Source: Brevinematales bacterium
GTDB taxonomy: Bacteria > Spirochaetota > Brevinematia > Brevinematales > JAOACQ01
Assembly (NCBI GenBank): GCA_020052515.1
Contig: JAGVOW010000064.1
Location: 3,862 to 67,861, forward strand
Length of the DNA: 64,000 nucleotides
Direction: 5' to 3'
Shown here: one piece after another, positions 7,782 to 63,382 of the stretch
How positions within the stretch are numbered: position 1 is the stretch's first letter
Layout: every line of letters begins with the position of its first letter
Notes under the pieces: model-generated
Databases searched by the model: none
What the model was told of the DNA's origin: nothing
The model's input: only the letters and a program-made list of their open reading frames with translations
Translations under genes and position numbers: made by a program

Positions 7782-7807
7782 TAGGCGCGGTTAATTAACC
7801 GCGCCTA
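7782..7807. repeat. Family B palindrome TAGGCGCGGTTAATTAACCGCGCCTA (B1)
   Basis: 26-bp perfect palindrome. The same core occurs at 39291-39326 and 44722-44759. Confidence 0.85.
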
Positions 7808-14257: not shown

Positions 14258-15028
14258 ATGAAGATTTTTAAGAAAACATTGTTACTGGTAAGCATCTTGT
14301 TAGCTTTTTCATCGTTGTTCGCCATGCCGTCTGCTACCGAGATAATGAATAAGATAGACTCGCTTCAGAAATTGGGTATAGATATAACAACAAAGGCTTC
14401 TATTGTCCAGCAGAAAGTTGGGCAGGGCGTAAAAACTTTTGATTCTGTTTATTACAGAAGGGATAGGGATGACGCTTTTTTGATTGTGATGATCGCGCCG
14501 GATTCAGAAAAGGGTAATGGATATTTAAGAGTAGGGGATAATTTCTGGATGTACCGCCAGAATACGCGTACTTTTCAGCATATAAATCGGGATGAAAGTA
14601 TCAGCGGTACTGACGCGAAAGCTGGAGATTTTGAAAACAGGAAATTGGCCGAGCTTTATAAACCGTTGGCCGATGAGAAGGGCAAAGAAATAGTGGAAGA
14701 GGAAATGCTTGGTAAAAAACCTGTATATAAAATTACCCTTATAGCTAAAGTCAACGATGTAACTTATCCAAAGCAGATTTATTGGGTGGAAAAAGCAACG
14801 TTTTTACCTTTAAAAGAGCAGTCTTTTTCGCTTTCCGGAACTTTGATGCAGACGGCTTATTACCCAAAGTACACGACTATTCAGGGTAAGTACGTTTTTC
14901 TTCAGGCTATTTTTGTGGATGAGTTTGAGAAGGGCAATAAATCCATTATGGAGCTTTCTGGGATTTCTCTTGCGCCCTTGGATGATAATATTTTTACGAA
15001 AGCTTATCTCGAAAATTTGAGTAAGTAA
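14258..15028 (+). CDS. LolA-like outer-membrane lipoprotein-sorting family protein
   Basis: Signal peptide. Size and sequence pattern (RDRDDAFLIVMIAPDSEKGNGYLRVGDNFWMYRQNTRTFQHI...SGTD) are typical of the LolA-like periplasmic family that accompanies MacB-type ABC systems. Confidence 0.7.
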   Translation: MKIFKKTLLLVSILLAFSSLFAMPSATEIMNKIDSLQKLGIDITTKASIVQQKVGQGVKTFDSVYYRRDRDDAFLIVMIAPDSEKGNGYLRVGDNFWMYRQNTRTFQHINRDESISGTDAKAGDFENRKLAELYKPLADEKGKEIVEEEMLGKKPVYKITLIAKVNDVTYPKQIYWVEKATFLPLKEQSFSLSGTLMQTAYYPKYTTIQGKYVFLQAIFVDEFEKGNKSIMELSGISLAPLDDNIFTKAYLENLSK

Positions 15029-15051
15029 GGCGAAGATAATTATCTTCGCCT
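15028..15051. terminator. Palindrome AGGCGAAGATAATTATCTTCGCCT (B/D family, D1)
   Basis: 24-bp perfect palindrome that overlaps the last base of the TAA stop. It shares the outer AGGCG/CGCCT and central TAATTA with family B. Confidence 0.6.
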
Positions 15052-28247: not shown

Positions 28248-28279
28248 AAATAGGCGACGATAATTATCGTCGCCTATTT
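28248..28279. terminator. Bidirectional intrinsic terminator, palindrome AAATAGGCGACGATAATTATCGTCGCCTATTT (B/D family, D2)
   Basis: 32-bp perfect palindrome with a GC-rich stem. An A-tract and a T-tract flank it, and further Ts follow. It lies between convergent genes. Confidence 0.75.
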
Positions 28280-28388: not shown

Positions 28389-30050
28389 CTAAAACGAAAA
28401 AGACATGGCAATTCCAGAATACCCTTGAAAAGGATCGATTTTAAAGCCAAGATAAATCTCTTCATTGTAAAGAGCCCATGCGGTGAGGGGAAAGGCAATC
28501 AAGAAAGCGCTGATTTGTCCCCAGGAACGGGAAACACTGAACATCTGATTGTAATATTGATATTGAGTAAGATATTCAGTATTTGTATTGCCGGTAGCTA
28601 TATACCAATCCATGTAATGAGACGCCTGGTAATGAGAATAAATGTTTACTCCGATCCAGAACACGGTAAGCCCCCATCCCGCGTAAGCCGCCCACCAGTA
28701 AATTTTCTTGTTCCATTGAGGAGTACCTTCGTATTCCAGGAGTGAAGTGTCTAATCTATAAACTTGATTGGTATCTTGTAAAGTAAAAGTATGGTAATAG
28801 GGAAAATAATTGGTAGAGGAATCTTGAATTTTTAAACGATGTTCTATTTCTAATGTCAAATTAGTTACAGTAAGCGGTGTAGCTCCTAAAAAAATCGAAT
28901 CGATAAAAACATTGGCATTGGTAGGCGTCGAGTTTACTTCGATTGTCCCTCCATCCAGAAGTTTGCTGATTTTCTTTCTGATAAAATTGGTTTTATTCTC
29001 TAAAATAATGCCCTCCGCCGCTAACTGATGGTAGCCCTGCTTGTAGAAAGAGACCTGATGTTTTCCGGCAGTTACTGCCGGGTAATAAAGCGGGCTTTTG
29101 CCGATAAACATCCCATCCAGATAAATATTGGCCTCAGCTGGTTCTGTGGCAATAATAATATCCCCATTTGGTTTTTCAAGCGAAAAAATCCTTATCGTTT
29201 TCAATGTCCTGAATAAGCCATCCGGGGTTTTATCTTCACGGGCAATAATAGTTAAATTTGTTTCCACTTCATTAGTAACGAACCTCTTTAGATGAATTTT
29301 TATTTCCAAATCATTGGGGCCTTTATTTTTTTGCGAAATCTTATATTCCCCGGAGAGATAAATTGAAAATCTTTCTGTATTCGTAAGGGTAGAGATATTT
29401 GTCTTTTCATTTGTGACAATAAAAGGCATAAAAGCGATTGAATTGGTTAATTCCGGAAATTCCTGGGTAATTAAATTCAAAAGAAGTTCTTTGGTGAGTT
29501 TCTTTTCGTTTGTAATATATGTGTTTGAAAAAACATCGTTTGTTTGAATCTGGACGATAGTGTTTGGAACAAAGGTGAGATTCCACACATTTTTTTTCTT
29601 GCCGCTTTTTGGATCGCTTGCCTCAATAAGATTTGAATTTGTTGTCTGGGTTTCCAGGTAGTTTGTGGCTATTAATTTTGTATACTGGGTAATAGTTGTT
29701 GCCATATTAGTCGTATAATTTGAAAAAATCGAATTGGAAGCAGTGATCAGATTTGATAGTGATTCTGGAATTACAATATCAAAGGCCTCCAATGAAGCTG
29801 AAATACTTTCATTTTCAAGAGGCTTTAAATAGCTCATGATCACTTCCGGAATAGCCTGCGAAAGATAATCCACATCCGCGTTTTGAGAAACGTTCTCAAA
29901 TTTATAAATGTGGAAAGTAATATTATTTTTAAACAAACCCAGAATTGAACTTTTTACATTGTCGCGCAACTTCATATCTTCTTCTTTTACGATCTTGTTT
30001 GAACAGGAAATAAAAGATAAAAAACACAATAGGACAATTACTCTTTTCAA
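28389..30050 (-). CDS. PEGA-domain lipoprotein with a C-terminal hydrophobic region
   Basis: Two PEGA-like domains: EANIYLDGMFIGKSPLYYPAVTAGKHQVSFYKQGY and NANVFIDSIFLGATPLTVTNL. The probable start is TTG 30050, with GGAGG 5 nt upstream, giving LKRVIVLLCFLSFIS-C (lipobox). The track ORF extends to ATG 30125, which abuts the upstream stop. Confidence 0.72.
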   Translation of the reverse strand: MKRVIVLLCFLSFISCSNKIVKEEDMKLRDNVKSSILGLFKNNITFHIYKFENVSQNADVDYLSQAIPEVIMSYLKPLENESISASLEAFDIVIPESLSNLITASNSIFSNYTTNMATTITQYTKLIATNYLETQTTNSNLIEASDPKSGKKKNVWNLTFVPNTIVQIQTNDVFSNTYITNEKKLTKELLLNLITQEFPELTNSIAFMPFIVTNEKTNISTLTNTERFSIYLSGEYKISQKNKGPNDLEIKIHLKRFVTNEVETNLTIIAREDKTPDGLFRTLKTIRIFSLEKPNGDIIIATEPAEANIYLDGMFIGKSPLYYPAVTAGKHQVSFYKQGYHQLAAEGIILENKTNFIRKKISKLLDGGTIEVNSTPTNANVFIDSIFLGATPLTVTNLTLEIEHRLKIQDSSTNYFPYYHTFTLQDTNQVYRLDTSLLEYEGTPQWNKKIYWWAAYAGWGLTVFWIGVNIYSHYQASHYMDWYIATGNTNTEYLTQYQYYNQMFSVSRSWGQISAFLIAFPLTAWALYNEEIYLGFKIDPFQGYSGIAMSFSF

Positions 30051-30125
30051 AAAAGCCTCCAGGGGCAATCTGATTTTAAGGTGTTTTATTATAAAGCAGG
30101 AGGCTTTTTCTGTCAAAAGGAACAA

Positions 30126-32171
30126 TTACCCGATAATGTCCAATAGCTCGTATATTTTAATTGGCGAAGAATACCCTTTTACCCTAATAGAATCAAGTTC
30201 CCTGACTATAACAGAATCTTTTGCTTTTTCATAAGTAAACTCGCTGATAATGATGTTTGTTTTATAAGTTTTATTTTCATCCTGAAGATCCTCCGCTAAT
30301 GTTGATGTTTCTCCAATTGCGGTGTAATTTTTCTTTTTTTCCGAGCCGATATTTCCAACCGTGATACAGCCGCTGTTTAAACCAATACCGATGTTGATAG
30401 GTTTGCGGCCTTGCTGTGCCTGCTCTTCGTTGAATTTCTTCAAAGCTTCCATCATTTTTACAGCGGCCCTGCAGCCGTTCAAGGCATGGTTGGGAAGCTC
30501 TATTGGAGTTCCCCAGAAAGCCACAACCGCGTCGCCGATGTATTTATCCAGAGTGCCTTTCGTTTCCATAACAATATCGGTCATTCGCGAAAGATAAATG
30601 TTGAGAAAGCTAATCAGTTCCTTCGGCGACATTCCTTCCGAAAGCGTTGTGAAACTACGAATATCCGAAAAGAGAATAGTGGCGTCTTTGTCCAGTCCAC
30701 CTAATTGCAGCATATCCGGATTTTGAATGAGAATATTAACTAAATCCGGGTTTACGTATTTGGAAAAAGTGCTTTTGATAAAGCGCTTTTCCTTTTCTTC
30801 CGTCAGAATAATGTATATTTCTCCCACGACAAGAACGAGAATCGAAATAATCATAGGTATAAGCGTAATGATTTGAATATTAAACTGAAAAAGCCCAAAA
30901 CCCAGCGCGAGAGGAATCGCGATAGAAAAAGCAAAGGCTGCAATTGTCGTCCGGATGCCTTTAAACAATAAAAAGGCAATCAAAAGGGTAAATAAAAGAA
31001 TATAAAGGGCATTCAGCCACACCGGCAGCGAAATAATAAAATCCCGGTTCACAATAGTTCCGATCGCATAGGCCAGATGCTCAGTACTGTTCATCTGGCC
31101 CAGGGGTGATGGCCAGCTATTGACAGTACTGCCTTGAATATTGTAGCCAACCAGAACAACAGCGTTTCTGGGGAGGCCGGTTTTATCAATATTGTCTTTT
31201 GAAAAATACTTCGCGGAAATACCCCTTAAATAACCTGAGTTTGCTTCCCCTTTATAGTTTATAGACAGCCTATAGAATTCATCTGTAGGAATAGTAAAAT
31301 CATTTTTAACCAAAATTCCATCCTTTTGTAGTTGGATGTCCTTAAAATCCGCTTTCAGCAGTTTCAGAGCTATGGCCAGAGCGGCAGAAGGGTAATAAAC
31401 TTCTTTAATCTTAATCGAATCGCCTGTTTTGACTTTATAATAAGTCTTCATCACCATCGGGCATTTTCTATAAATATCGTCTTCTTCATCCACATTAATG
31501 GTTCCCATAATTTTTGCGGATTCCGCCAATTCAGGAATAGGAGAAACAATTTTCGCGTATGCCTTGACCGGCAAGTTTTTGTCTATCTTTAATTCAAACT
31601 TTTTTAATGACTTTGCTTGCGGAGAGTCGTAATCCTGCGTTTCTTTGCTGTTGTTAATGGAGCTTTTATCGTAAAAATCCTCCAGCATCATGTTTTCACC
31701 GGCATTGCCTTTGTAGTTTTTTAAGGCCTCTTGAAAAGCTTTGTCGCTTTCAGGTTTCGCGGAAGGCTCATTGAAAAAGATGTCAAAAAACACCATCCGG
31801 GGAATGGATTCTTCGTCCTGCGTATTGTAATACTGAAGCATATCCGCCCATACCGCCCGGTCAATAACAAGATTGCCATAATACTGCACCGCGGCGTCAT
31901 CTACTGAAGCAACGACAATCTTTTTATAGATACCGCTTACCGCTTTTGTTTTAATAGTACCAATGACAGCTTCGGCTTTTGTAGCCGCTTTTGATAAGAA
32001 ACGCCAATTCAAAGATATATTTTCCACATTCCGGAGAAGTGATCGGAGCCCGATTACATCAAACCGCGGAGGGATATTGTAAAAACCCAGGACAATCACT
32101 ATGAAAAACAAAGAAATAAATAAAATAAAAAGAGATTTGTTATATTTTTTCTTCTGCTTTACCTGCGACAT
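30126..32171 (-). CDS. CHASE2-domain class III adenylate/guanylate cyclase, 'C1-like' paralog
   Basis: Layout is an N-terminal TM helix, a periplasmic CHASE2-type domain of about 330 aa, 3 TM helices, then the cyclase domain. Both metal Asp residues are present (ILFSDIRSFT, KYIGDAV). The transition-state motif reads ETSTLAEDL instead of D.VN.ASRL. Confidence 0.9.
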   Translation of the reverse strand: MSQVKQKKKYNKSLFILFISLFFIVIVLGFYNIPPRFDVIGLRSLLRNVENISLNWRFLSKAATKAEAVIGTIKTKAVSGIYKKIVVASVDDAAVQYYGNLVIDRAVWADMLQYYNTQDEESIPRMVFFDIFFNEPSAKPESDKAFQEALKNYKGNAGENMMLEDFYDKSSINNSKETQDYDSPQAKSLKKFELKIDKNLPVKAYAKIVSPIPELAESAKIMGTINVDEEDDIYRKCPMVMKTYYKVKTGDSIKIKEVYYPSAALAIALKLLKADFKDIQLQKDGILVKNDFTIPTDEFYRLSINYKGEANSGYLRGISAKYFSKDNIDKTGLPRNAVVLVGYNIQGSTVNSWPSPLGQMNSTEHLAYAIGTIVNRDFIISLPVWLNALYILLFTLLIAFLLFKGIRTTIAAFAFSIAIPLALGFGLFQFNIQIITLIPMIISILVLVVGEIYIILTEEKEKRFIKSTFSKYVNPDLVNILIQNPDMLQLGGLDKDATILFSDIRSFTTLSEGMSPKELISFLNIYLSRMTDIVMETKGTLDKYIGDAVVAFWGTPIELPNHALNGCRAAVKMMEALKKFNEEQAQQGRKPINIGIGLNSGCITVGNIGSEKKKNYTAIGETSTLAEDLQDENKTYKTNIIISEFTYEKAKDSVIVRELDSIRVKGYSSPIKIYELLDIIG

Positions 32172-32185
32172 AAATTCCCCTCCTC

Positions 32186-34276
32186 TTATTTAATGTCCAA
32201 TAGTTCGTATATTCGCACCGGCTTGTTTTTCCCTTTTACTTTAGTTAAATCAAGCTCTCTGGCGATCACATTGTTTTTGACTAACTCATATGTAAATTCG
32301 CTTAAAACAATATTGGTATGAAAAAACTTGTTCAGGCCTTTCAAACGGGATGCCAGATTGACCGCGTCGCCGATAGCCGTATAGTTTTTTTGCTGCTCTG
32401 ATCCGACATTCCCCACAATAATATTTCCGGTATTGATGCCAATGTTTATTTTAATTGGTTTATAACCCTTTTTTGCCTGTTCGGCATTAAATTCCTGCAG
32501 CGCTTCTATCGTTTTTACGCTGGCCTGGCAGGCTTTTAAAGCATGGTCCGGAAGATCGACCGGCGCGCCCCAGAAGGCCATCACACAATCACCGATGTAT
32601 TTGTCCAGGGTTCCGCTTGTGTTGATGACAATATCCGCCATCTTTGAAAAATAACTGTTTAGATAGCTGATCAGTTCCTTTGCGTCGACATTATCTTTGA
32701 TGCTTTCCAGGCCCTTTGTCGCCGAAAAGAAGACCGTTACTTCTTTATCTTCACCGCCTAATTGAATGCGTTCCGGGTTTTGAATCAAGATATCGACTAA
32801 TTTTGGATTGAGGTAGCTGGAAAAGGTAGAATGGATAAATTTCTTCTCTTTTTGTTCTGTCAACAAGACATATATTTGCACGGCTACCAGTATGAGAACA
32901 CCGGAAAGTAAAGGCAGAAAGGTAACAATCTGGATGTTAAATAGAAACAAAGAGATTCCCAGCGCTAAAGGAATAATGAAAAACAGCGCCGTTGCCACAA
33001 TCGTCGAACGGGTTCCACGGGACACCATCCAGCCGATCAGCATAGAAATCAAAAATAAATAAAGGATATCAATCCACTCTGGTACTTCCGTAATGAAATT
33101 TCTTTTCAGCAGGGTGCCTAATACGTACGCGTTATGCTCGATCCCAAACATTTCCCCCAGTGGAGAAGCCCATTTATCTAAAGCCATTGACTTTGAGTAC
33201 ATTCCGACAAAAACAAAAGCGTTCTTCACTAATTCCGTATGAGCAATATCTTTCAATGGCACAATGCGGACATAGCCGCTCTGGGGGCTTGATTCGTAGT
33301 TTATCGAAAGTCTCCATCGATCGTCAACGGGTATAATAAAGTCAGTTTTTTGTCCGTTATAAACCGCGTTTTTAATGGTCACCTGATTTTTCTCAAAAAC
33401 CAGATTGCTAATATCGGAGTGAAACAGCTTTACAGCCATTGCCAGAACAACTGAAGGATAATAGACATTGGTTATAGTAAAATTGTTGTTATTGGTGAGA
33501 AAATAGCTGGCTCTCACAACCATCGGTTTCTTCAAGACCACACCCTGTCCATGGTCAATATTTGCTGATCCAAGAAAGCCCAGAGATTTAGAAATATCGG
33601 CCATAACAGGGGCTACGCGCGGAAAATTCATAGTTTTTTTCAGCTTTTGATTTAAATTCAATTCAAAGCGCTTCATTGCTTGTACTCTTTGTGAATCGTA
33701 ATTCAAAGACTCATTTTCATAGAGAGTTTTTCGGATCTTGCTGTCTTCTGTAATATTTATCTTTGTGCTGAAGACATCCAATATGATATCTTCGCCTACT
33801 AAGCTGGAGTAATTACTAAAGGCTTCAATCAATGCTTTGTCACTTTCCGGTCTCTGGCTTGGTTCTGCGAATATGATATCAAAAAAGACCAGAGAGGGCA
33901 TAGATTCTTTGGGAAGTGAGTTAAAATGATTCAGGAGATCGGCGTAGACTTTTCTGTCCAAAGGATAGCTTACTCCGAAAGAGCGGATAGAAGCATCGTC
34001 AACGGCGGCAATCACAAACTGATTATACACGTCTTTTTTGCCGTAATTTGTCAACGCGAGTGGAACGCTGGAGTTTTTTCCCTCTAAAATAGATTTTACT
34101 TTAAAGCGAAGATTGATGGAAGAAGTCTCAAATGCCTGAAACTTTTCCTTTATTTTAAAGACAGCGCCTTCATCCATATAATAATAAAAACCAGCGACAA
34201 ACAGAAATACTAAAAATGAAATAATAAAGACAACAGAGTATTTGCCAAATTTTTTCCAGAATCTGTTTGTTGCCAT
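32186..34276 (-). CDS. CHASE2-domain class III adenylate/guanylate cyclase, 'C2-like' paralog
   Basis: Same architecture as the downstream paralog. The first metal-site motif reads VFFSATKGLE (Asp replaced by Ala). KYIGDCV and DAVNLASRL are intact. An AGGAGG RBS lies 12 nt after the glgB stop. Confidence 0.9.
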   Translation of the reverse strand: MATNRFWKKFGKYSVVFIISFLVFLFVAGFYYYMDEGAVFKIKEKFQAFETSSINLRFKVKSILEGKNSSVPLALTNYGKKDVYNQFVIAAVDDASIRSFGVSYPLDRKVYADLLNHFNSLPKESMPSLVFFDIIFAEPSQRPESDKALIEAFSNYSSLVGEDIILDVFSTKINITEDSKIRKTLYENESLNYDSQRVQAMKRFELNLNQKLKKTMNFPRVAPVMADISKSLGFLGSANIDHGQGVVLKKPMVVRASYFLTNNNNFTITNVYYPSVVLAMAVKLFHSDISNLVFEKNQVTIKNAVYNGQKTDFIIPVDDRWRLSINYESSPQSGYVRIVPLKDIAHTELVKNAFVFVGMYSKSMALDKWASPLGEMFGIEHNAYVLGTLLKRNFITEVPEWIDILYLFLISMLIGWMVSRGTRSTIVATALFFIIPLALGISLFLFNIQIVTFLPLLSGVLILVAVQIYVLLTEQKEKKFIHSTFSSYLNPKLVDILIQNPERIQLGGEDKEVTVFFSATKGLESIKDNVDAKELISYLNSYFSKMADIVINTSGTLDKYIGDCVMAFWGAPVDLPDHALKACQASVKTIEALQEFNAEQAKKGYKPIKINIGINTGNIIVGNVGSEQQKNYTAIGDAVNLASRLKGLNKFFHTNIVLSEFTYELVKNNVIARELDLTKVKGKNKPVRIYELLDIK

Positions 34277-39290: not shown

Positions 39291-39326
39291 GCATATAGGC
39301 GCGGTTAATTAACCGCGCCTATATGC
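39291..39326. repeat. Family B palindrome, 36-bp perfect copy (B2)
   Basis: Sequence GCATATAGGCGCGGTTAATTAACCGCGCCTATATGC. It begins 7 nt after the oppD stop. Confidence 0.85.
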
Positions 39327-42681: not shown

Positions 42682-43764
42682 ATGCAGGATTATAAAAAAC
42701 AATTCCAGAGACGTTTTAAAGACCTGGAAAAAGATATCCGCAAGAGTTTAAAATCTCTTCAGAAAATAGATGCGCCTCATTCTGTCGTTTTTTCAAAAAA
42801 ACAATTATTATTCGGTGGAGCTGTTCTGGGAGCTGTTATCATTATTTTTTCAACCATTTTGATTCTCCATGCTTTCAAGCAAAAAATTTATGATGTGTCT
42901 TTTTTGGGTAAAGTAAAAATAGAGGAAGAGTTTAATTCCATGTCAAATATGGACGCGACGGGCGGCAATGAGATAAAGTCTTTTGAGACAAATAGCGCTG
43001 AGCTGAAATTTTTCTTTTATAAAATCAAACAGGGAGAATCTGTTTATACCCTTGCGAAAAAACTGGGTGTCAGTATGGATACCTTGATCAGTTTGAATAG
43101 TATGGAAAATGCCCACAGTTTAGAGGAAGGGAAAAGAATTATTGTTCCAAATCTTCAAGGAATCTTGTACAACGTTAAAAAAGGCGATAACTTAGAAAGT
43201 ATCGCTAAAAAGTATAAAATCAATTTAGAAGATGTGCTGGACGCGAATGATTTGCAGGAGAGCGAAATCTCTAAAGCGGAAGTGAATGAAGGAGATATTA
43301 TTTTTCTTCCGGGAGCGCAATTATCTGATGCTGAAAGAGCGAAAATATTAGGCTATTTGTTTGTAAAGCCTTTGAGAGGCAGATTTACCTCTGGATTTGG
43401 TGTAAGAATGGATCCTTTTTACGGAAGCGCTGGTTACCATCCTGGTGTTGATATATCAGCTCCCATAGGTACTACTGTAAAAGCGGCCAAAGAAGGCAGA
43501 GTCGTTTATGCTGGATGGTATGGCGGATACGGAAAATGCATTATTATTAAGCATAAATTTGGCTATGAAACAATCTATGGCCACCTTTCAAGTATTGGAG
43601 TCAAAAAAGATTATTGGATTTCAGTAGGGCAGTATATCGGCAGAGTAGGAAGCACCGGCCGTTCAACGGGAGCGCATTTGCACTTTGAGGTAAGAAAATT
43701 TGGCCGTCCTATCAACCCCCTGCGGTTGGCTGGCCTTGCTAAGGCGCAAAGACGATGGTATTAA
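42682..43764 (+). CDS. M23 family metallopeptidase with two LysM domains
   Basis: An N-terminal TM anchor. LysM repeats YKIKQGESVYTLAKKLGVSMDTLISLN and YNVKKGDNLESIAKKYKINLEDVLDAN. M23 motifs HPGVDI and GAHLHFEV. Confidence 0.9.
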   Translation: MQDYKKQFQRRFKDLEKDIRKSLKSLQKIDAPHSVVFSKKQLLFGGAVLGAVIIIFSTILILHAFKQKIYDVSFLGKVKIEEEFNSMSNMDATGGNEIKSFETNSAELKFFFYKIKQGESVYTLAKKLGVSMDTLISLNSMENAHSLEEGKRIIVPNLQGILYNVKKGDNLESIAKKYKINLEDVLDANDLQESEISKAEVNEGDIIFLPGAQLSDAERAKILGYLFVKPLRGRFTSGFGVRMDPFYGSAGYHPGVDISAPIGTTVKAAKEGRVVYAGWYGGYGKCIIIKHKFGYETIYGHLSSIGVKKDYWISVGQYIGRVGSTGRSTGAHLHFEVRKFGRPINPLRLAGLAKAQRRWY

Positions 43765-43770
43765 CTTCCT

Positions 43771-44730
43771 ATGAATCAAATTATTTCGCTTCTTCTGAAT
43801 CAAGAAAATTACCTATCCGGCCAGGAATTAGCGCGTAAACTCAATTTATCGCGGACCGCGGTCTGGAAGCAAATTCATAAGGCTAAGGAAGCCGGGTGGA
43901 AAATTGAATCCTGCCGGAAAAAAGGATATAAGATTATCTCTTCTCCAAAAAATAGAATCATTCACGAAATAGTAGAGTTTTATTTTAAAAACAAACTTCC
44001 CTTTGAATTAATTCTACTGGAATCTGCAGATTCTACCAATGAAGCCGCAAAGAGAATGCTTTTAAGCAATAAGGAAGGAAGTTTCCTCGTCACCGCGGAA
44101 GAGCAAACCGCGGGTAAAGGAAGATTTCATAGAAAATGGGAAAGCCAGAAGGGAAAAGATTTAACCTTCTCTCTTTGCTTATCTTTAGACAAAAATATTT
44201 CTGAATTATATTCATTTACTATGATAGCGGCTTTATCCGTCTATGAGGTTATTGCCTCTTATTTGAACGATCAGTCAGCCCTGTTAAAAATAAAATGGCC
44301 CAATGATATTTATTACGACGGGAAAAAATTTTGCGGCATCCTGGCAGAAACTTTTGCCGAAGACAATATTATTCATCATATTATTATCGGGATCGGTATC
44401 AATATCAATTCCTCTCCAACTATGGAAACAGCCATTTCTCTCAAATCTATTTTGGGGAAAGAAGCTGACCGAAATCAAATTTTGTCCGAAATTATGAGGA
44501 AATTACAGGAAAATCTTTTATCTTATCAGCAGGGCAAGTTTGAGGCTGTCTATAAAAAATGGAAGGCAGCTGTTTTATGGATAGGTAAACCCGTAAAGCT
44601 TCTTGTCGGGCAAGAAGCACATTACGGAATTTTAACTGATATTCAGCCTAATGGGGCACTGCTTATTTCTGATTCCGGAAAGGAAAGTGTTTTTTATTCA
44701 GGGGATTTGTCGGCAGACTTCCTTTTATAG
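43771..44730 (+). CDS. birA: Bifunctional biotin--[acetyl-CoA-carboxylase] ligase and biotin operon repressor
   Basis: N-terminal wHTH YLSGQELARKLNLSRTAVWKQI, ligase motif QTAGKGRFHRKWES, and KWPNDI. Confidence 0.9.
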   Translation: MNQIISLLLNQENYLSGQELARKLNLSRTAVWKQIHKAKEAGWKIESCRKKGYKIISSPKNRIIHEIVEFYFKNKLPFELILLESADSTNEAAKRMLLSNKEGSFLVTAEEQTAGKGRFHRKWESQKGKDLTFSLCLSLDKNISELYSFTMIAALSVYEVIASYLNDQSALLKIKWPNDIYYDGKKFCGILAETFAEDNIIHHIIIGIGININSSPTMETAISLKSILGKEADRNQILSEIMRKLQENLLSYQQGKFEAVYKKWKAAVLWIGKPVKLLVGQEAHYGILTDIQPNGALLISDSGKESVFYSGDLSADFLL

Positions 44731-44759
44731 GCGCGGTTAATTAACCGCGCCTATAAAAG
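44722..44759. repeat. Family B palindrome, 38-bp perfect copy (B3), with the birA stop codon inside it
   Basis: Sequence CTTTTATAGGCGCGGTTAATTAACCGCGCCTATAAAAG. The TAG stop at 44728-44730 is part of the left arm. Confidence 0.85.
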
Positions 44760-56466: not shown

Positions 56467-57606
56467 CTAATAAAAATCCACCCTGTAATTTACGCCAACT
56501 AAAAGAAGGGTGTTGCCGCCTTTAAAATCGGCGACTCCGTTTATGGTTTGGAAAGACTCTGAAAAGGATGAGTAATAAAAATCCAATTTTATGCCCCAAT
56601 TTCCCTGAAAATAATAATCCAGTCCTAGATTAACAATCGGAATAGCGATCGATCTATGAGGCTCCGCGATATCATTACCTATAAGCATTTCGCTATTTAG
56701 AAAATTCATAGCGAAAGAGGCTTTAAGAGAAAACTCCGGGCTGAAGTCATATTTTACAAAGGCCATAGGCGCTAAAAACGCGGGCGTAATTTGATAGGCA
56801 ACGTAATTGTTTCCGGGATAAGACCTGATCGTAACCAGCGAAAATGTAGCTGCAAGCCCCGCGCCCGCTGTAATATTCCAGAGCCTGTATCCGGCAAAAA
56901 TAGCGCTCAAATTGTTTTTCCAGTTGTCCAGCGACAACTCATTATTCACGAGCAAGGGCATAAAACTGCTGAAACCAAAGTAAACGCTTCCCAGCCTTAT
57001 TTCCAGCCCCATGAAAGGAAGCCAGGTAAAGTGATCGTTAAAACTGCTGTTTATTCCCAGCGTAGTGACAAAAGAACGGTTTAGTTTGATGTCATCAGAA
57101 ACCAATTCCACTCTTTTTCTATATTTTACAAGAGTTTCTTCATCCATCGGTTTGACTGCCTTTGTCACATCCTGCCTCAAGTTTTCAATAATAACATCCA
57201 GAGTGTCAAATATGTCCTGGCCCGCGTTTCCGGAGTAGCTATTCTCAAACTTTAAGAGCCTCTGGAGGACATCGTAAACGCTTACATAAATGTAGATTTT
57301 ATCGCCGATCACAGCATAACTTCCATTGACAACAATATCGTAACCATTGGTGTAAGCGTCATTAAAAACACCGCGCATAGACGTTTTTTCCGCGTTTTTT
57401 ATATTTACATCCAGATAATCTACTTTTGACAGAAATGTTTTAATGGAATTCTGGATCACCAGTGTTAAATTGGCCTCTCTGCCTTTTTCTGTTTTATTCA
57501 CAAACGGATATACCGCCATTTTCCAATGATTGGTGGGTTGTGTGTTTCCATAACTAATTTGAACAAATAAAAATAATACAAATAGTGAAAGCATTATCTT
57601 TTTCAT
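56467..57606 (-). CDS. Envelope protein with an N-terminal LpoB/CsgG-like module and a C-terminal beta-barrel (379 aa)
   Basis: Signal peptide. N-domain pattern MAVYPFVNKTEKGREANLTLVIQNSIKTFLSK...YDIVVNGSYAVIGDKIYIYVSVYD. The C-terminus ends ...VGVNYRVDFY (OMP beta-signal). Confidence 0.6.
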   Translation of the reverse strand: MKKIMLSLFVLFLFVQISYGNTQPTNHWKMAVYPFVNKTEKGREANLTLVIQNSIKTFLSKVDYLDVNIKNAEKTSMRGVFNDAYTNGYDIVVNGSYAVIGDKIYIYVSVYDVLQRLLKFENSYSGNAGQDIFDTLDVIIENLRQDVTKAVKPMDEETLVKYRKRVELVSDDIKLNRSFVTTLGINSSFNDHFTWLPFMGLEIRLGSVYFGFSSFMPLLVNNELSLDNWKNNLSAIFAGYRLWNITAGAGLAATFSLVTIRSYPGNNYVAYQITPAFLAPMAFVKYDFSPEFSLKASFAMNFLNSEMLIGNDIAEPHRSIAIPIVNLGLDYYFQGNWGIKLDFYYSSFSESFQTINGVADFKGGNTLLLVGVNYRVDFY

Positions 57607-58727
57607 TATTTTCCTCCCAGAGTAAACTTATAAGAAATGCCGCCTGAGAGAGAACTGTTGACCACCAATGGAGGCATCCCGCCTGAATCAGGGATCAATA
57701 TCAGCCAGATGTTATATTGAAAACCAGCCCATAAGACAGGAGTTATTCCTATATTAAACCGGAGAAATCCGCCTGTCAGATTAAACTTTCCGCTATACTC
57801 ATAGGGCCAGTTTTGATTTTCCGCGACTGAAGGCGGCAGAGAATAATCAATGCGGTTTATTTCTGAAAGGGGAGTGAAATAACCCCCTAAGGCAAGCTGG
57901 TATCGGTCTGTTACATTTACCATCATAACCGGAGAAAAATAAAAACAGTGAAAACTCAAAATATTGTCTTCAGTATCCGCTGTCCGGTAACCGATACGGG
58001 CAGTCAGAGTCAAAAGCCCATTAAAAGCATTGATTTCCGGGCCGCCGTAAACAGCATATTCAGCGATTCCCAGAAAAGAAGCGCTTGCGCCAAAATTAAA
58101 ACCAAGCCACTTGTAGCGGAAAGCGGAGTCAAGATAAAGGCCTATTTCATTGGAATACATTTCTGCTATGGGAATCGAGTTGCCTGAGTAGAAAAAGCCC
58201 AGCTCTGTTATCACCGCCGGATTGACATACTCAAATCTTCCAACTCCTATTTTCTCCACTTCTTCTTTTACCAGAATATTTTTTGGTATCCTCGGAAAGT
58301 GATCTTCCAGCCACAACGGCAGGGACTTTCTTAATTTTGTGATACCTTCGTTTAAATCTGAAAAATCCAGCCGGGTGGAGAAGCTTTTACCGTCACGGTT
58401 GACCGCGTTTATATTCAATTCAAATTTACCCTGCGTTTGTTTCAATTCCCCTATGAGACAAACATTAATCTTATTGAGCAATAAGAATTTTGTTATGTCG
58501 CTGGTATCAAGATAATTAGTTGCCTGAAAATCCAGAACAAGCTGGGCATTGCTTATGCGGCTGATAATGCTTCTGGATTCCTCTTCAAACAAATATGCCT
58601 GCGCGGCGGAAGCGGAAACAGCGCTGAAATCTTTCACAAAAATTTTTGGAGGAACGGTTTCTTCCGCCGAAAACCCTATAGAGAAAGATAACAGCAAAAC
58701 CCCTGCCGCGAGATGAAATTTAGACAT
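57606..58727 (-). CDS. Paralogous-architecture envelope protein, N-domain plus beta-rich C-terminal domain (373 aa)
   Basis: Signal peptide. N-domain pattern IFVKDFSAVSASAAQAYLFEEESRSIISRI...NVCLIGELKQTQGKFELNINAVN. Its stop overlaps the next gene's start as TAATG. Confidence 0.6.
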   Translation of the reverse strand: MSKFHLAAGVLLLSFSIGFSAEETVPPKIFVKDFSAVSASAAQAYLFEEESRSIISRISNAQLVLDFQATNYLDTSDITKFLLLNKINVCLIGELKQTQGKFELNINAVNRDGKSFSTRLDFSDLNEGITKLRKSLPLWLEDHFPRIPKNILVKEEVEKIGVGRFEYVNPAVITELGFFYSGNSIPIAEMYSNEIGLYLDSAFRYKWLGFNFGASASFLGIAEYAVYGGPEINAFNGLLTLTARIGYRTADTEDNILSFHCFYFSPVMMVNVTDRYQLALGGYFTPLSEINRIDYSLPPSVAENQNWPYEYSGKFNLTGGFLRFNIGITPVLWAGFQYNIWLILIPDSGGMPPLVVNSSLSGGISYKFTLGGK

Positions 58728-58883
58728 AAATCCTCCAGTTGGATCAACTAGAAAGTGGAAATTTAACCTGATTTTATTCTACAACGAAACAATAGAAATT
58801 GCATGTTTAATGAATAATTTATTATCACTAAAAAGATAATTCATTCGTCAATTCACCGATTTTGCTCAAAGATAACTCAATGC

Positions 58884-58912
58884 TTGACAAAAAGCAAAAA
58901 TAAAGATAATCT
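58884..58912 (+). promoter_or_regulatory. Candidate promoter of the zinc operon, TTGACA-17 nt-TAATCT
   Basis: A perfect -35 TTGACA at 58884-58889 and a weak -10 TAATCT at 58907-58912. The palindrome starts at the end of the -10 element. Confidence 0.4.
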
Positions 58913-58934
58913 ATATGCAAATGATTTGCATATA
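58912..58934. promoter_or_regulatory. Candidate Zur (Fur-family) operator, 23-bp palindrome TATATGCAAATGATTTGCATATA
   Basis: Two perfect 11-bp arms around a central G at 58923. It sits between the -10 element and the AGGAGG RBS of the first gene of an operon that ends with a Fur-family regulator. The AT-rich 7-1-7-like architecture resembles known Fur/Zur boxes. Confidence 0.55.
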
Positions 58935-58944
58935 GGAGGGATAT

Positions 58945-59523
58945 ATGAAATTGCAAAAATTTTTACTTGCCGCTGTTTTGATAATGTCATGCAGTATGGC
59001 TATGGCGGAAGAAGAAAAGAAAGCCACCGGGCTTTCAGCGGGGATTGAAACAGGATACGGTGATGTGCTTACCTACGGTGAAGGGTTTGAATTCTGGGTT
59101 AAACCGAATATCGGCTGGGATATTTTCGACACCGGCTTCTCATTAGGCCTGGGCCTGGTTCTGCCAGTTTACCCGGCTGGAAACAGCATCTCTTTAGAAC
59201 TTTCGGAAAGTTATGGACTGGATATTGGAGACTCCGGTTTTGAAGCGGAATTCGGGAACTGGAATGGACTGTCTCTGGGAGAACAGCCTGGATTTGACGG
59301 TTTTATTTTCGCTGGTATCGGTTATTCAGGTTTTTCCCTGGCTCTACAGGCGCATTATTTAAGCGGTTCGGCCTTCGGATTTGGCGGCCTGACATTTGTT
59401 CCCGGTTATTCCTTTGAATTGGGAAATTTTGAGATAGGTATCTGCGCTGAGATCGGCATGCAGACCGGTGAACAGATCAGCTGGTCTATTGTACCGATAT
59501 TGGGCTGTTCCTATAGTTTCTAA
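58945..59523 (+). CDS. Small acidic Gly-rich outer-membrane beta-barrel protein (192 aa), first gene of the zinc operon
   Basis: Signal peptide ...SMAMA-EEE. Short amphipathic strands are rich in G, F, E and D. The C-terminus is ...GCSYSF (terminal Phe beta-signal). Confidence 0.6.
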   Translation: MKLQKFLLAAVLIMSCSMAMAEEEKKATGLSAGIETGYGDVLTYGEGFEFWVKPNIGWDIFDTGFSLGLGLVLPVYPAGNSISLELSESYGLDIGDSGFEAEFGNWNGLSLGEQPGFDGFIFAGIGYSGFSLALQAHYLSGSAFGFGGLTFVPGYSFELGNFEIGICAEIGMQTGEQISWSIVPILGCSYSF

Positions 59524-59548
59524 ACAATCTTAAACAGGAGTTTAAAAA

Positions 59549-60484
59549 ATGAAACAACTTATATTTCTTAAAGTAATAATGGGTTTATCCATTATTTTAA
59601 CAGCTTGCGCAGGGAAAAACAATGCTGGAAAAGGCGAGGTATTAACATCATTTTACCCGATACAGATATTTACTATGAATATCACGGAGGGCATTCCTGA
59701 ATTGGCTCCGAAGTTAATGATCCCATGCACGCTTGGCTGTCCGCATGAATATTCCATGACACCTGGCGATATGGAAAAAATCAGGAGCGCGAAAGTTTTG
59801 ATTATCAACGGCCTGATGGAATCTTCTTTTATATCGCCTGAAAAAATCAAGGCCTTAAATCCATCCGTCACCTTGATAGATTCGGGAAAAGAAGCGGTAT
59901 TAATTCCGCTGGAAGAGGAAGAAGGCCACCACCATGATGGAAACACGCACGAAGAGGAGCACCATCATGGAAAATACAATCCGCATCTCTGGGTTTCACC
60001 TTTTGTCGCGGCGGTGCAGGTGCGCGTGATCGGCAGAGAATTGTCGGCGCTTTATCCAAAACACTCTGAAAAACTTTTAAAAAACGCGGAAAACTACGCA
60101 ATGAAATTGGAAGCCATGGGTGAAACCATGAAAAAAGAAATCGCGAAATTTCCGAATAAAAAAATTATTGCCTTTCATGAAGCATTTGATTATTTTGCCC
60201 GCGACCTGGGGCTGGATGTGGTTGGGGTTCTGGAAATCGAACCTGGGGTAAATCCCGGCCCGAAGCACTTGAAGGAAATGGCTAACCTGGCTAAAAAGTA
60301 CAATTTAAAAGCTGTATTCGCGGAAGCTCAATACCCGGCGGATATTGCTGAAATGGTCGCAAAAGAAGCCGGAATAAGGCTGTTAATTTTAGATCCCGCG
60401 GCCAGCGCGGCTAAAATAGAACCGGGTATGTATGAGGAAATAATGGTAAAAAATATGTCAGCTCTGAAAGAGGCTTTACAGTAA
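59549..60484 (+). CDS. znuA: Zinc ABC transporter substrate-binding lipoprotein (ZnuA/TroA family)
   Basis: Lipobox LTA-C. An acidic His-rich loop, EEEEGHHHDGNTHEEEHHHGKYNPHLW, is characteristic of ZnuA. It has the cluster-9 SBP layout. Confidence 0.85.
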   Translation: MKQLIFLKVIMGLSIILTACAGKNNAGKGEVLTSFYPIQIFTMNITEGIPELAPKLMIPCTLGCPHEYSMTPGDMEKIRSAKVLIINGLMESSFISPEKIKALNPSVTLIDSGKEAVLIPLEEEEGHHHDGNTHEEEHHHGKYNPHLWVSPFVAAVQVRVIGRELSALYPKHSEKLLKNAENYAMKLEAMGETMKKEIAKFPNKKIIAFHEAFDYFARDLGLDVVGVLEIEPGVNPGPKHLKEMANLAKKYNLKAVFAEAQYPADIAEMVAKEAGIRLLILDPAASAAKIEPGMYEEIMVKNMSALKEALQ

Positions 60485-61203
60485 TGACAAACGACGCTAT
60501 TCAGGTAAAAGAACTATCGGTAAAGATCAATGAAACCGTTATTCTGGATAACCTGAGCTTCACTATACCAAAAGCCCAGGTTACATCTATCATCGGGCCG
60601 AACGGAGCGGGTAAAACTACTCTGCTGTCCGCCATATTAGGAATGATTGAGTATTCCGGGAGCGTTGAATTTTGCGATGGAAATAATGTAAAAATCGGTT
60701 ATGTGCCCCAGCGGCTGAGTCTCGCGAAAGACTCAGCCGTAACGGCGGCCGATTTATTTACGATGACCCATCAGAAAAAACCGGTCTATCTTGGCACAAC
60801 CAGAAGATGCGGCGTCATCGCCGAAGAATATTTGAATCTGGTCCAGATGGCTCATTATAAGAACAGAAAGCTCTCTGTGCTGTCCGGCGGCGAATTACAG
60901 CGTGTCCTGATAGGGCTTGCCTTATCCAGAAAACCATCCATTCTTATCATGGATGAAGCTTCCGCCGGTATTGATTTCCAGGGAAGTTCCGCACTGGACG
61001 ATTTAACCAGGAAGCTGAACCGTGAGAATTCATTGACCGTCATTATGGTATCACATGATTTAAGCGTTGTAAACCGCTCTTCTGACCACATTGTATGCAT
61101 TAACAAAACACTGGTCTGTCAGGGACCGCCTGAAAAAACGCTGACGCCGAAAAGTATAGCGAATGCGTTCGGAAATCCGGCGCTTCATTCTCATGCCCAT
61201 TAA
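60484..61203 (+). CDS. znuC: Zinc ABC transporter ATP-binding protein
   Basis: Walker A GPNGAGKTT, signature LSGGELQRVLIGLAL, Walker B ILIMDEASAGID. Confidence 0.85.
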   Translation: MTNDAIQVKELSVKINETVILDNLSFTIPKAQVTSIIGPNGAGKTTLLSAILGMIEYSGSVEFCDGNNVKIGYVPQRLSLAKDSAVTAADLFTMTHQKKPVYLGTTRRCGVIAEEYLNLVQMAHYKNRKLSVLSGGELQRVLIGLALSRKPSILIMDEASAGIDFQGSSALDDLTRKLNRENSLTVIMVSHDLSVVNRSSDHIVCINKTLVCQGPPEKTLTPKSIANAFGNPALHSHAH

Positions 61204-61211
61204 GAGGTTAT

Positions 61212-62075
61212 ATGTTAAATGAGATATTTTTAGTAATTTATCATTTTCTGGATATTGTTTTGCCCTTTGCCTGGGCAGAACCGGTCTTTATGAAAAACGC
61301 GCTGATAGCGCTGGTGTTGATCGCTCCGGCCGCGGCGCTGGTCGGCATTCACCTGACGGCTTTACATATGGCTTTTTTCGGCGACGCGATTTCCCATTCC
61401 GCTTTTACCGGGATTGCTCTGGGTTTTTTATTTTCGGTTAATCCTTCCCTATCTATGGCAATATTCGCGGTGGCGATATCCATTTTGATCTATTTTGTCG
61501 AAAAAAAATCCAATATCGCGATGGACAATATTATCAGCGTGATGATGAGCCTCGGTGTGGCTGCCGGCCTCTGTATTGTCAGTTTCCGCAAGAGTTTTAT
61601 GCGTGATTTCCAGTCTTATTTATTCGGTGATATTTTAACCGTCAGCCAGGGTGAGATCATTGTTATGTTTCTAGTCCTGGTATTCATAGTCATCTGGAGC
61701 TATATTAACTACAACCGCCTGGCCTTGATGTCGCTGTCTCCGCTTCTCATAATCGATAAAGCGAAATCAAGGGGTTTGAGCAAGCTTTTATTTTCATTAT
61801 TATGCGCGGTGCTGGTAGCAGTCAGCATAAAAGTTACGGGAATGCTCCTGATCACTTCGCTTCTGGTTATTCCCGCGGTGACAGCCAGGCTGATCGCGAA
61901 AAGCGAAGGACGGATATTCCGGATAGCGTATATGATAATCGCCGGTACGTCACTATTCGCGCTCATCGTGTCTTATTACCTCGACATGGCGACCGGAGGA
62001 GTTATCATTGTTTTTCTTTCAGTTTTGTTTTTTATCGCTTATTTATTGCGGGCTGTCTGGAAAATATCATTATAA
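61212..62075 (+). CDS. znuB: Zinc/manganese ABC transporter permease (ABC-3 family)
   Basis: About 8 TM helices. Motifs FFGDAISHSAFTGIALG and TSLLVIPAVTARL are typical of ZnuB/TroCD-type permeases. Confidence 0.85.
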   Translation: MLNEIFLVIYHFLDIVLPFAWAEPVFMKNALIALVLIAPAAALVGIHLTALHMAFFGDAISHSAFTGIALGFLFSVNPSLSMAIFAVAISILIYFVEKKSNIAMDNIISVMMSLGVAAGLCIVSFRKSFMRDFQSYLFGDILTVSQGEIIVMFLVLVFIVIWSYINYNRLALMSLSPLLIIDKAKSRGLSKLLFSLLCAVLVAVSIKVTGMLLITSLLVIPAVTARLIAKSEGRIFRIAYMIIAGTSLFALIVSYYLDMATGGVIIVFLSVLFFIAYLLRAVWKISL

Positions 62076-62152
62076 TTTTTATTCATAAAGTGGTTTTTAC
62101 TGTTTTACTGAATTATAATTATAGGATAAATATTTCGGCAGGATTTTAATTT

Positions 62153-62575
62153 ATGAAAGATAAGTGTCAGGCGCATAATCTGTTAAGTGAAAATCAGCTT
62201 AAAATAACTAAACAAAGAGAAGATGTTTTATCCAGGATAATAGAATTGGATAAGCCCTTCAATGTCAATGAGCTGCGTTCAGTCCTGGGCGGCAATTTTG
62301 ATATAGTCACGATTTACCGGATATTAGAAGCTTTCAGCCGGAAGGGAATTGTCCGCGAAGTATCCAGTCTAAACGGCGTGCGATATTTTGAATTGTCCTG
62401 CGTACACCACCCCATACATCCGCACTTTATCTGCGAGCATTGCCATAGTATTTACTGCCTGGGCGCGATTGACTATAAAGACAGCCTTAAACTGGGTAAG
62501 TATGCGGATACACACAGCATATCCGGCATATCGATTAATTTCACGGGAATTTGCGGCCAATGCGGGGTGAAGTAA
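62153..62575 (+). CDS. zur: Fur-family metalloregulator, probable Zur
   Basis: 140 aa. The wHTH region is TKQREDVLSRII...IYRILEAFSRKGIVREV. Metal sites are HHPIHPHFICEHCHSIYC and CGQCG. It lies immediately downstream of znuACB. Confidence 0.75.
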   Translation: MKDKCQAHNLLSENQLKITKQREDVLSRIIELDKPFNVNELRSVLGGNFDIVTIYRILEAFSRKGIVREVSSLNGVRYFELSCVHHPIHPHFICEHCHSIYCLGAIDYKDSLKLGKYADTHSISGISINFTGICGQCGVK

Positions 62576-62581
62576 ATAAAA

Positions 62582-63382
62582 TCATATTTCGATTTCATTG
62601 CCCGTACTGTAATAAAAAACATTGGTTTTAAAGGCGTTTTTCAGAACAGAGTAGGGGTCAATTCCGGTGCAGTGGCAGGCGCCTATCCGGCCGATTTTAT
62701 ATTCCAGGAGCTTGCCGGATAGTTTGCCGATAAAATCAGCGCTTGAGTCTTTAATATGAAATCCGCCCAGAACGAGGCCAACGGGCAAATCAAAATAGGC
62801 GATTGCGGAGTCAATCATATTCGAAATGCCTCTGTGAGAGCAGGCGCTGATAATATTGATCTTGTCGCCGCTTTTATAAGCTATGAATTGTTCGTCTGAA
62901 AAGGTGTCTTCCGAGAAACCGGCATCCGATTGAATAAAGAAATTTTGAAAATGGGTGTCCCAGGTGTTTTTAAGCGGAATAACGGAAATAAGGAAAAAAT
63001 CTTGAAAAAGTTCAATGTTTTCTTTTACAACCCGGATTCTGCTGTCAAACAGGCCGGGATTGTATGGTGTGCCGATGAATCGGGTTTTATTTTTATACTT
63101 TGGGGCAAAGAAGCCCTCTTTGACGTAAATATTTGCTTTATCGTTCATTCGGCAGAAAGCCTCAAGCCCTCCGGTGTGGTCATAATGCCCATGGCTTAAT
63201 ACAACCGTATCAACTGCTGATAAATCTATTCCAAGAACTTCCGCGTTTTCCATGAAGCGGCCGCTCTGACCGGTATCGAATAAAATCCTGCGCTGATCCA
63301 TTTCGATATACAAAGATAAACCATGCTCCGCTGTTAGTTTCTGTCCATAAACGACGTTGTCCATTAGACAAGTTATCCTCAT
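62582..63382 (-). CDS. MBL-fold metal-dependent hydrolase (COG1237-like)
   Basis: N-terminal CLMDN..., then LSLYIE....ILFDTGQSG, and the metal motif LSHGHYDHTGGL. Confidence 0.78.
   Translation of the reverse strand: MRITCLMDNVVYGQKLTAEHGLSLYIEMDQRRILFDTGQSGRFMENAEVLGIDLSAVDTVVLSHGHYDHTGGLEAFCRMNDKANIYVKEGFFAPKYKNKTRFIGTPYNPGLFDSRIRVVKENIELFQDFFLISVIPLKNTWDTHFQNFFIQSDAGFSEDTFSDEQFIAYKSGDKINIISACSHRGISNMIDSAIAYFDLPVGLVLGGFHIKDSSADFIGKLSGKLLEYKIGRIGACHCTGIDPYSVLKNAFKTNVFYYSTGNEIEI

Follow-up and report, generated by a model that had tools for sequence, protein, structure and literature searches.

What role does a small, strongly acidic secreted protein play at the head of a bacterial zinc-uptake operon, and what controls the expression of that operon? 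These questions are raised by one locus in a 64,000-nt stretch of DNA from a Brevinematales bacterium (contig JAGVOW010000064.1; hereafter the window, whose positions serve as coordinates throughout). Five co-oriented genes on the forward strand encode, in order, a 192-amino acid (aa) secreted protein predicted to form a beta-barrel (58945..59523), for which neither Pfam nor NCBIfam gave a match, a ZnuA-type zinc-binding lipoprotein (59549..60484; PF01297, E=1e-58; lipobox LTAC), a ZnuC-like ATP-binding cassette (ABC) transporter ATPase (60484..61203; ABC_tran, PF00005) whose start overlaps the znuA stop, an ABC-3 family permease resembling ZnuB or AztB (61212..62075; PF00950) and a 140-aa Fur-family regulator with an HxH and two CxxC motifs (62153..62575; PF01475, E=5.5e-13). 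The intergenic gaps measure 25 nt between the barrel gene and znuA, 8 nt between the ATPase and permease genes and 77 nt ahead of the regulator gene, and no convincing internal terminator was found between the five genes. An earlier note, made from the letters of this DNA, had proposed this gene order, including a znuA with a His-rich loop, and the family matches agree with it; the loop, EEEEGHHHDGNTHEEEHHHG, is present. Our best explanation, to which we assign a probability of roughly 0.6, is that the operon is repressed by its own Fur-family regulator through a palindrome lying over the transcription start, and that the product of the first gene admits metal ions through the outer membrane.

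Direct reading of the operon head, with all elements on the forward strand, returned the arrangement that had been described before, namely TTGACA at 58884, a weak -10, a palindrome and AGGAGG. The -35 hexamer TTGACA (58884..58889) is separated by 17 nt from the -10 hexamer TAATCT (58907..58912). Three of the loci introduced below, L006, L002 and L020, also combine TTGACA with 17 nt of spacing, and the hexamers corresponding to TAATCT read TATTAT, TATAAT and TACAAT in them, respectively. TAATCT agrees with the consensus at three of six positions, keeping A2 and T6, and is therefore unlisted by the consensus promoter scanner, which demands at least four matches of six. The palindrome was reported as a perfect repeat of 23 bp (TATATGCAAAT-G-ATTTGCATATA, 58912-58934); it is real and perfect, but its actual length is 25 bp (12-1-12, 58911..58935), and we propose it as the operator of the operon's Fur-family regulator. 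Within it, a core 7-1-7 box, TGCAAAT-G-ATTTGCA (58916-58930), starts 3 nt past the -10 hexamer, so placed that the palindrome falls between the promoter and the ribosome-binding site (RBS) AGGAGG (58934..58939), which stands 5 nt ahead of the ATG at 58945.

Palindromes with a 1-nt gap and arms of at least 11 nt occur just once in the whole window, at 58911-58935, and 5.5% of 200 Markov shuffles of the window yield one equally long. The length of the palindrome alone is modestly unusual; its significance comes from its position and its recurrence in other loci. The exact core TGCAAATNATTTGCA has a single occurrence in the window. A search for the box elsewhere, which covered the window, gave one further core match (43243-43255), inside the coding sequence of a LysM/M23 peptidase, which we dismissed as chance given 0.59 matches expected. 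The weaker Fur-like repeats that the earlier note had pointed out at 58814-58825 and 62111-62120 do exist but are ordinary AT-only palindromes; they carry no signal, because such palindromes occur 7 times (5-2-5 type) and 14 times (5-0-5 type) in the window.

The box recurs at the head of related operons. In L006, whose barrel protein is 68% identical to that of the window, the order TTGACA-17-TATTAT-aaa-TGCAAATgTTTTGCA-RBS is followed by the barrel gene and znuA, the same layout as in the window, and in L002 (barrel 56% identical) TTGACA-17-TATAAT-caata-CGCAAATgAATCGCA stands ahead of znuA, with a second site, GCGAATgATTCGC, upstream of the -35. L095 (barrel 41% identical) has TGCAATTaATTTGCA, with one mismatch, directly ahead of the RBS in a promoter that is otherwise unclear, and L001 (barrel 62% identical) has a symmetric variant, TGCCAATgAATGGCA (TGCCAAT-G-AATGGCA), inside the promoter spacer. 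All five barrel proteins related at 41% identity or more, that of the window included, are thus preceded by the box or a variant of it in the promoter. Two unrelated loci surfaced in other searches. In L020, from a Eubacteriaceae metagenome-assembled genome (MAG; CALCVR010000207.1, 173-1697), a Fur-family gene and a znuA with a His loop point away from each other, and the DNA between them reads TTGACA-17-TACAAT-tat-TGCAATTAAGTTGCA. L103 (5351-6589 of a contig with a G+C content (GC) of 25%) has TATAAT-ctaaa-TGCAACTATTTTGCA-AGGAGG ahead of a permease gene of the ArsP_2 family (PF11449), which is overlapped by a downstream gene for a 124-aa Fur-family protein. L103 came from a search of metagenomes for orthologous regulators, which gave relatives of at most 35% identity, and its box was unexpected.

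When the six promoters of the window, L006, L095, L002, L020 and L103 were aligned, GCAA-T---T-GCA proved invariant and the flanks diverged, and in five of them (all except L095) the box begins 3-5 nt past the -10 hexamer. In the window, the AT-rich palindrome overlaps the promoter of zinc-uptake genes, and its core is kept ahead of znuA in L006, L002 and L020. Among the fetched loci (~1.1 Mb), the core GCNAWTNAWTNGC was found in L001, L002 and L095 only, one of the two L001 matches lying within coding sequence, and in none of the other 99 fetched loci, which include 80 unrelated ZnuA loci. Every box-bearing locus of sufficient length (the window, L095, L002, L020 and L103) contains a Fur-family gene, and the five regulators share H89, H91, C94, C97, C134 and C137, so that both CxxC pairs of a structural Cys4 zinc site (C94xxC97 and C134xxC137) are kept in all of them.

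If the -10 hexamer is correctly placed, the palindrome is transcribed, and instead of being a DNA operator it might then form a hairpin in the 5' untranslated region of the mRNA and influence its stability or its translation. The RNA does fold in the window (-11.9 kcal/mol, z=-3.5) and in L095 (-9.6 kcal/mol, z=-2.6), but the corresponding RNA of L006 (z=+0.66) and L002 (z=-0.31) folds no better than shuffled sequences, and the substitutions in these two loci are non-compensatory while the GCAA/TTGC half-site letters stay invariant. Moreover, the L001 variant sits in the promoter spacer, which is not transcribed, an Rfam scan of the whole window gave no match, and the hairpin would leave AGGAGG free. 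As folding stability is not conserved between the loci, we rejected the hairpin, which we consider very improbable. Because the core and position of the box recur in metal-transporter loci while the stability of the hairpin does not, the comparison of promoters makes it highly probable that the palindrome serves a Fur-family protein as operator and covers the transcription start. The candidate operator that had been suggested upstream of an autoregulated operon thereby gains support, with the 7-1-7 box in the same position in L006, L002, L020 and L103, and ahead of the RBS in L095.

We next consider which metal the system handles. The sequence of the regulator points to its family and not to one member of it: searched singly against the PDB, it matched Fur 6d57 at 8e-7, PerR 2fe3 at 1.3e-6, FurB/Zur 2o03 at 1.4e-6 and E. 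coli Zur 4mtd at 9e-3; searched as a profile, it matched Fur at 4e-14, PerR at 2e-12 and Zur at 7e-9 and 2e-5; and it scored 24 bits against the NCBIfam Zur equivalog, whose cut-off is 167. The name Zur given to the regulator in the earlier note is thus not assignable from sequence, since Zur is no closer to the protein than Fur and PerR are. ZnuA speaks more clearly. Its top PDB matches are all zinc-specific (E 1e-34 to 1e-28), led by E. coli ZnuA 2ogw at 9e-34 and followed by YcdH, AdcA and Synechocystis ZnuA, against E 1e-18 or weaker for Mn/Fe-binding proteins, and in an alignment with E. coli ZnuA all three His ligands coincide (cpHeys, npHlw, afHeaf). With its His-ligand ZnuA, ABC-3 permease and ATPase, the operon encodes a ZnuABC-type importer, albeit a divergent one, as the znu genes score below the NCBIfam equivalog cut-offs; the best relatives of the window ZnuA in species genomes, from Clostridia MAGs, are 36% identical to it, and it is closest (33-37% identity) to Clostridia proteins of the kind seen in L020. 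On the basis of ZnuA, zinc is probably the signal in this window. The ZnuA of L002 (125-1474) comprises 449 aa, with an insertion of ~140 aa between the His-rich stretches EAEHHGHEEGKH and GEGHHHHHGG.

The first protein of the operon has a signal peptide (residues 1-21) with cleavage between AMA and EE, an A-x-A signal-peptidase site. A lipoprotein reading of its LIMSC motif was rejected, since the Cys is not conserved in homologues and the A-x-A site follows it. The mature protein of 171 aa has an isoelectric point of 4.05, 21 Asp plus Glu versus 3 Lys, no Arg and 18.7% Gly, and it ends in ...CSYSF, with a terminal Phe. AlphaFold2, run on an 18-sequence alignment, returned a model of a signal helix and 10 strands with a predicted local distance difference test score (pLDDT) of 88.4 and a predicted template-modelling (TM) score of 0.76. 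Foldseek searches of the PDB with this model matched exclusively outer-membrane barrels, at probability 1.00 and with TM scores of 0.4-0.5, none of them close: NspA, OmpU, FapF, Ail, the N-terminal domain of OprF, Tsx and intimin, NspA 1p4t being matched at E=1.6e-4 and TM 0.41-0.50. No match to TonB_dep_Rec or Plug was found in the 192-aa protein. With a signal peptide, 10 amphipathic strands and a C-terminal aromatic beta-signal, the protein is, as modelled, very probably an outer-membrane beta-barrel, and genes for BamB-like and LolCE-like proteins and for outer-membrane proteins (OMPs) in the window indicate a diderm cell. The earlier note had envisaged a barrel of about 8-10 strands and had named a periplasmic or non-barrel protein as the finding that would overturn its idea; the confident 10-stranded model and the fold matches point to the outer-membrane barrel.

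To characterize the interior of the barrel, strand faces were assigned by hydrophobic alternation, the polar side being presumed to face the lumen. The polar faces carry 10 Asp/Glu, 1 Lys, 16 Gly and 13 Ser/Thr, and the same positions hold 9-12 acidic and 1-2 basic residues in the four other metal-linked homologues. By our own estimate from standard barrel geometry, ten strands would give a C-alpha radius of some 9-10 Å. A lumen lined by Gly and Ser could then leave a narrow, water-filled and strongly cation-selective path, and we put the likelihood that the barrel functions as a metal or cation channel at slightly short of even.

The barrel belongs to a very small and so far undescribed family. 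A word-indexed search of 5.8 billion proteins gave 4 members, and an exhaustive profile search of 1.84 billion representatives gave 28 at E<=1e-3, 7 of them at E<=1e-10. Compared with Pfam, 18 family members produced one weak match, to OMP_b-brl (E=4e-4), and the family profile matched no PDB sequence at E up to 10. No confirmed relative emerged when GTDB species genomes and JGI metagenome contigs were scanned with the alignment of the close subfamily, the lineage being absent among the species representatives. The close homologues are linked to zinc genes, as the idea in the earlier note required, and in different gene orders: three of the five close members (window, L006 and L002) adjoin znuABC, in two arrangements, the barrel gene of L002 following znuA-znuC-znuB and standing beside a convergent Fur-family gene. 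In L095 (2484-4499), the barrel gene is followed by one for a 300-aa CbiM+PDGLE fusion, with neither CbiQ nor CbiO, and by an orthologue of the window regulator; beyond this Fur-family gene lie a TP_0789-like gene and three MacB/FtsX genes. In L001 (3054-4437), the place of a known importer is taken by genes for a pair of small membrane proteins, of 148 and 101 aa, which carry no annotation and to which family searches gave no assignment.

More distant relatives keep other company. A 33%-identical barrel gene in L098 (6001-6582; GCA_017302015.1, JAFLEE010000028.1) lies between cheA and a gene for a methyl-accepting chemotaxis protein, its start overlapping the cheA stop; another distant member adjoins the gene for a C_GCAxxG_C_C protein; and 241-aa forms, in L007-L013, are found in the conserved order response regulator, histidine kinase, 176-aa protein, radical SAM/SPASM enzyme, barrel and YjbQ. 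The contigs of one further relative are too short to judge its context. Because members of 39% identity or less are without metal neighbours, the metal link is, as far as gene neighbourhoods tell, a property of one subfamily and not of the whole barrel family.

How these elements may work together can be outlined from the observed sequence features, gene families, box conservation and barrel-importer linkage and from the predicted barrel fold. The five genes would be expressed as a single transcription unit (58945-62575), driven by a promoter of the sigma-70 type in which a strong -35 is paired with a weak -10. The product of the last gene, the Fur-family protein, would bind TGCAAAT-N-ATTTGCA as a dimer when charged with metal (most likely Zn2+) and, sitting over the transcription start, block RNA polymerase; upon metal scarcity the repressor would be released, and the barrel, the ZnuABC importer and more regulator would be made. 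The barrel, with a predicted inner face of Gly/Ser and about ten uncompensated Asp/Glu, would most likely serve as a small cation-selective channel or a cation-concentrating entry site, by which divalent metals would cross the outer membrane and reach ZnuA, a periplasmic lipoprotein, with no need of TonB energy. From the layout we infer that barrel and importer are under common control, and the metal identity, the repression and the channel activity are likewise steps of inference.

Several observations weigh against this explanation, chiefly against its zinc and channel components. The barrel has a single His and no Cys/His cluster, and hence no obvious high-affinity zinc site, and extreme acidity is found family-wide, including in members that lack a metal link. 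To our knowledge, the solved 10-stranded barrels OmpT and OpcA are not channels. In the PDB and NCBIfam comparisons, the regulator shows no preference for characterized Zur proteins over Fur, PerR or Nur, and its orthologue in L095 (43% identity) drives a CbiM/PDGLE importer. The family of this importer is annotated for Co/Ni, and the protein has the N-terminus MHIPD, typical of Ni/Co-type S-components; not every locus need sense, or at any rate transport, the same metal. Two readings fit L095, namely that its importer transports zinc or that the metal handled by the module varies from host to host; a literature search for PDGLE and zinc found no papers. No promoter-located box was found elsewhere in the window, 64 kb being too little to define a regulon; barrel relatives at 39% identity or below show no metal link; and the linkage evidence comes from five loci of a very small family. 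Two points of the earlier note need amending in this light. It had suggested a dedicated zinc or cation channel or a surface zinc-binding protein, and a general divalent-metal partner is more likely than one dedicated to zinc, since L095 pairs the module with the CbiM/PDGLE importer; the acidity of the protein, which it had pointed out, is not specific evidence for zinc in a family that is strongly acidic as a whole.

These points lend themselves to two other explanations. Box, regulator and barrel could form a portable metal-uptake module that is not specific for zinc and for which ZnuABC is one of several partners; the regulator clade would then sense, and the barrel admit, divalent transition metals at large, or another metal in each host. 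L095 fits this idea, as its one-mismatch box, 41%-identical barrel and 43%-identical regulator accompany CbiM+PDGLE; L103 has the same type of box with an ArsP_2 permease and a Fur-family gene, and L001 a barrel and a box variant with two small membrane proteins. A regulator equidistant from Fur, PerR and Zur and a barrel without a His/Cys site to select zinc point the same way. Yet the window has a binding protein that is clearly zinc-type, znu genes are found at the L020 box and at three of the five close barrel loci, and the CbiM-like substrate in L095 could itself be zinc. We regard a module without zinc specificity as less likely than the preferred explanation. Still less probable, in our estimate, is that the operator is correctly identified and the barrel is a structural or housekeeping OMP, stabilizing the envelope under metal starvation, for example, or docking the ZnuA lipoprotein. 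Barrels as small as 8-10 strands do not usually form open pores, and both the family-wide acidity and the non-metal settings of distant members, in the che operon of L098 and the radical SAM/two-component cluster of L007-L013, are in keeping with such a role. However, the adjacency of barrel and importer survives changes in gene order (the barrel gene is first in the window, L006 and L095 and fourth in L002) as well as in importer type, and a predicted lumen with ~10 uncompensated acidic residues and one basic residue is hard to square with a closed, salt-bridged core. We retain repression by the Fur-family regulator and metal entry through the barrel as the preferred explanation.

Beyond the operon, the gene next after that of the regulator (62582-63382) encodes an MBL-fold protein and is convergent. 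On the other side, two adjacent paralogues on the reverse strand (56467-57606 and 57606-58727), divergent from the operon, encode proteins of 379 and 373 aa with signal peptides; they belong to no Pfam family and have weak N-terminal similarity to the TP0183 family and an OMP-like C-terminus (...YRVDFY). No GC anomaly is seen across 56-64 kb, and a signal of horizontal transfer was accordingly rejected. Long perfect palindromes of another kind stand at gene 3' ends (7782-7807, 15028-15051, 28248-28279, 39291-39326 and 44722-44759) and share the core TAGGCG-NNN-TAATTA-NNN-CGCCTA, three copies being identical (ATAGGCGCGGTTAATTAACCGCGCCTAT); most are without a T-run, and they resemble repetitive extragenic palindromic (REP) elements or terminators. 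A reverse-strand region at 28389-34276 holds tandem paralogous genes for CHASE2-adenylate/guanylate cyclases (30126-32171 and 32186-34276), adjoined by a third large open reading frame with no NCBIfam match.

The passage of free metal ions over the outer membrane without TonB-dependent receptors is poorly documented, and metal-regulated porins are few (MnoP, MspD and the OprD type). If our explanation is right, the 171-aa barrel within an importer operon would be the smallest such metal-entry component known, easily expressed and assayed in bilayers, and diderm bacteria can complete a Firmicute-like znu/zur cassette with an outer-membrane gate of their own. Tentatively, and with less assurance than for channel function in the window barrel, we extend this to a new family of 10-stranded, TonB-independent, cation-selective channels, as modelled, one subfamily of which would act with the regulator clade and its operator as a portable adaptor placed ahead of ZnuABC, CbiM/PDGLE or a two-protein system. 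As a candidate for metal passage the barrel is in any case testable and unusually compact, though it is restricted to a lineage that has rarely been sampled. The box TGCAAAT-N-ATTTGCA, for its part, seems to mark the operators of one Fur-family clade in very different genomes, of 25% to 52% GC, and could aid regulon prediction in uncultured lineages.

How does this locus compare with known systems? Reviewed Zur boxes are 7-1-7, 9-1-9 or 23-bp palindromes, zur genes may be autoregulated, and Zur regulons include TonB-dependent receptors and oprD (PMC6103462). The window conforms to Zur/znuABC systems in its regulator with HxH and two CxxC motifs, in the AT-rich 7-1-7 repeat over the promoter, in the ZnuABC target and in the inclusion of the regulator gene in the regulated unit, which implies autoregulation. 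It departs from known Zur and Fur boxes in its half-site TGCAAAT. Bacillus Zur recognizes the half-site TCGTAAT and Fur the half-site TGATAAT, and enterobacteria have yet another Zur box. Searches of the Zur-box literature gave no description of TGCAAAT-N-ATTTGCA, and, unlike in Zur systems, transporters of the CbiM/PDGLE and ArsP_2 kinds are also found behind this box together with the regulator clade. The regulatory layout itself is classical; what is new is the barrel family (10 strands, 171 aa, within an importer operon), the half-site TGCAAAT and the apparent modular reuse of box, regulator and barrel.

As an outer-membrane component, the barrel resembles MnoP in concept. MnoP of Bradyrhizobium japonicum is presented in PMC6011978, with reference to Hohle et al. 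2011, as a high-affinity outer-membrane importer of manganese. Like MnoP, the window protein would be a TonB-independent barrel for divalent-metal entry that is induced by scarcity via a Fur-family repressor. MnoP is co-regulated with an inner-membrane importer by the Fur-family regulator Mur. The likeness is drawn at the level of concept: the window barrel, with 171 aa in its mature form and 10 strands, is of far smaller size, and its gene belongs to the importer operon itself. A second parallel is MspD, a Zur-regulated porin of Mycobacterium smegmatis that is induced by zinc starvation and by zur deletion and has a negatively charged pore (PMC13098993). The proposed function, an outer-membrane pore upstream of ZnuABC, is the same, but MspD is an octameric Msp-type porin of the mycomembrane, a structure of which none was found among the fold matches of the window barrel, and its gene (msmeg_6057) is separate from znuABC (msmeg_6045-47) and znuABC2 (msmeg_6049-52), unlike that of the window barrel.

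Outer-membrane zinc acquisition is otherwise mostly attributed to ZnuD and other Zur-regulated TonB-dependent receptors (PMC2895646, PMC6103462). Such receptors have 22 strands, ~700-800 aa and a plug and depend on TonB energy, whereas the window protein has 192 aa, 10 strands and no plug. In size class, in its all-next-neighbour barrel and in its C-terminal aromatic residue, it is instead like NspA, Ail/OmpX and the N-terminal domains of OmpA and OprF (8 strands) and like OmpT and OpcA (10 strands). These small barrels work as adhesins, anchors or proteases, and networks of charged residues fill their lumens. The window barrel differs from them in having no sequence relationship and TM scores of only 0.4-0.5, and in a predicted lumen that is rich in Gly and Ser and carries ~10 acidic residues and 1 basic residue.

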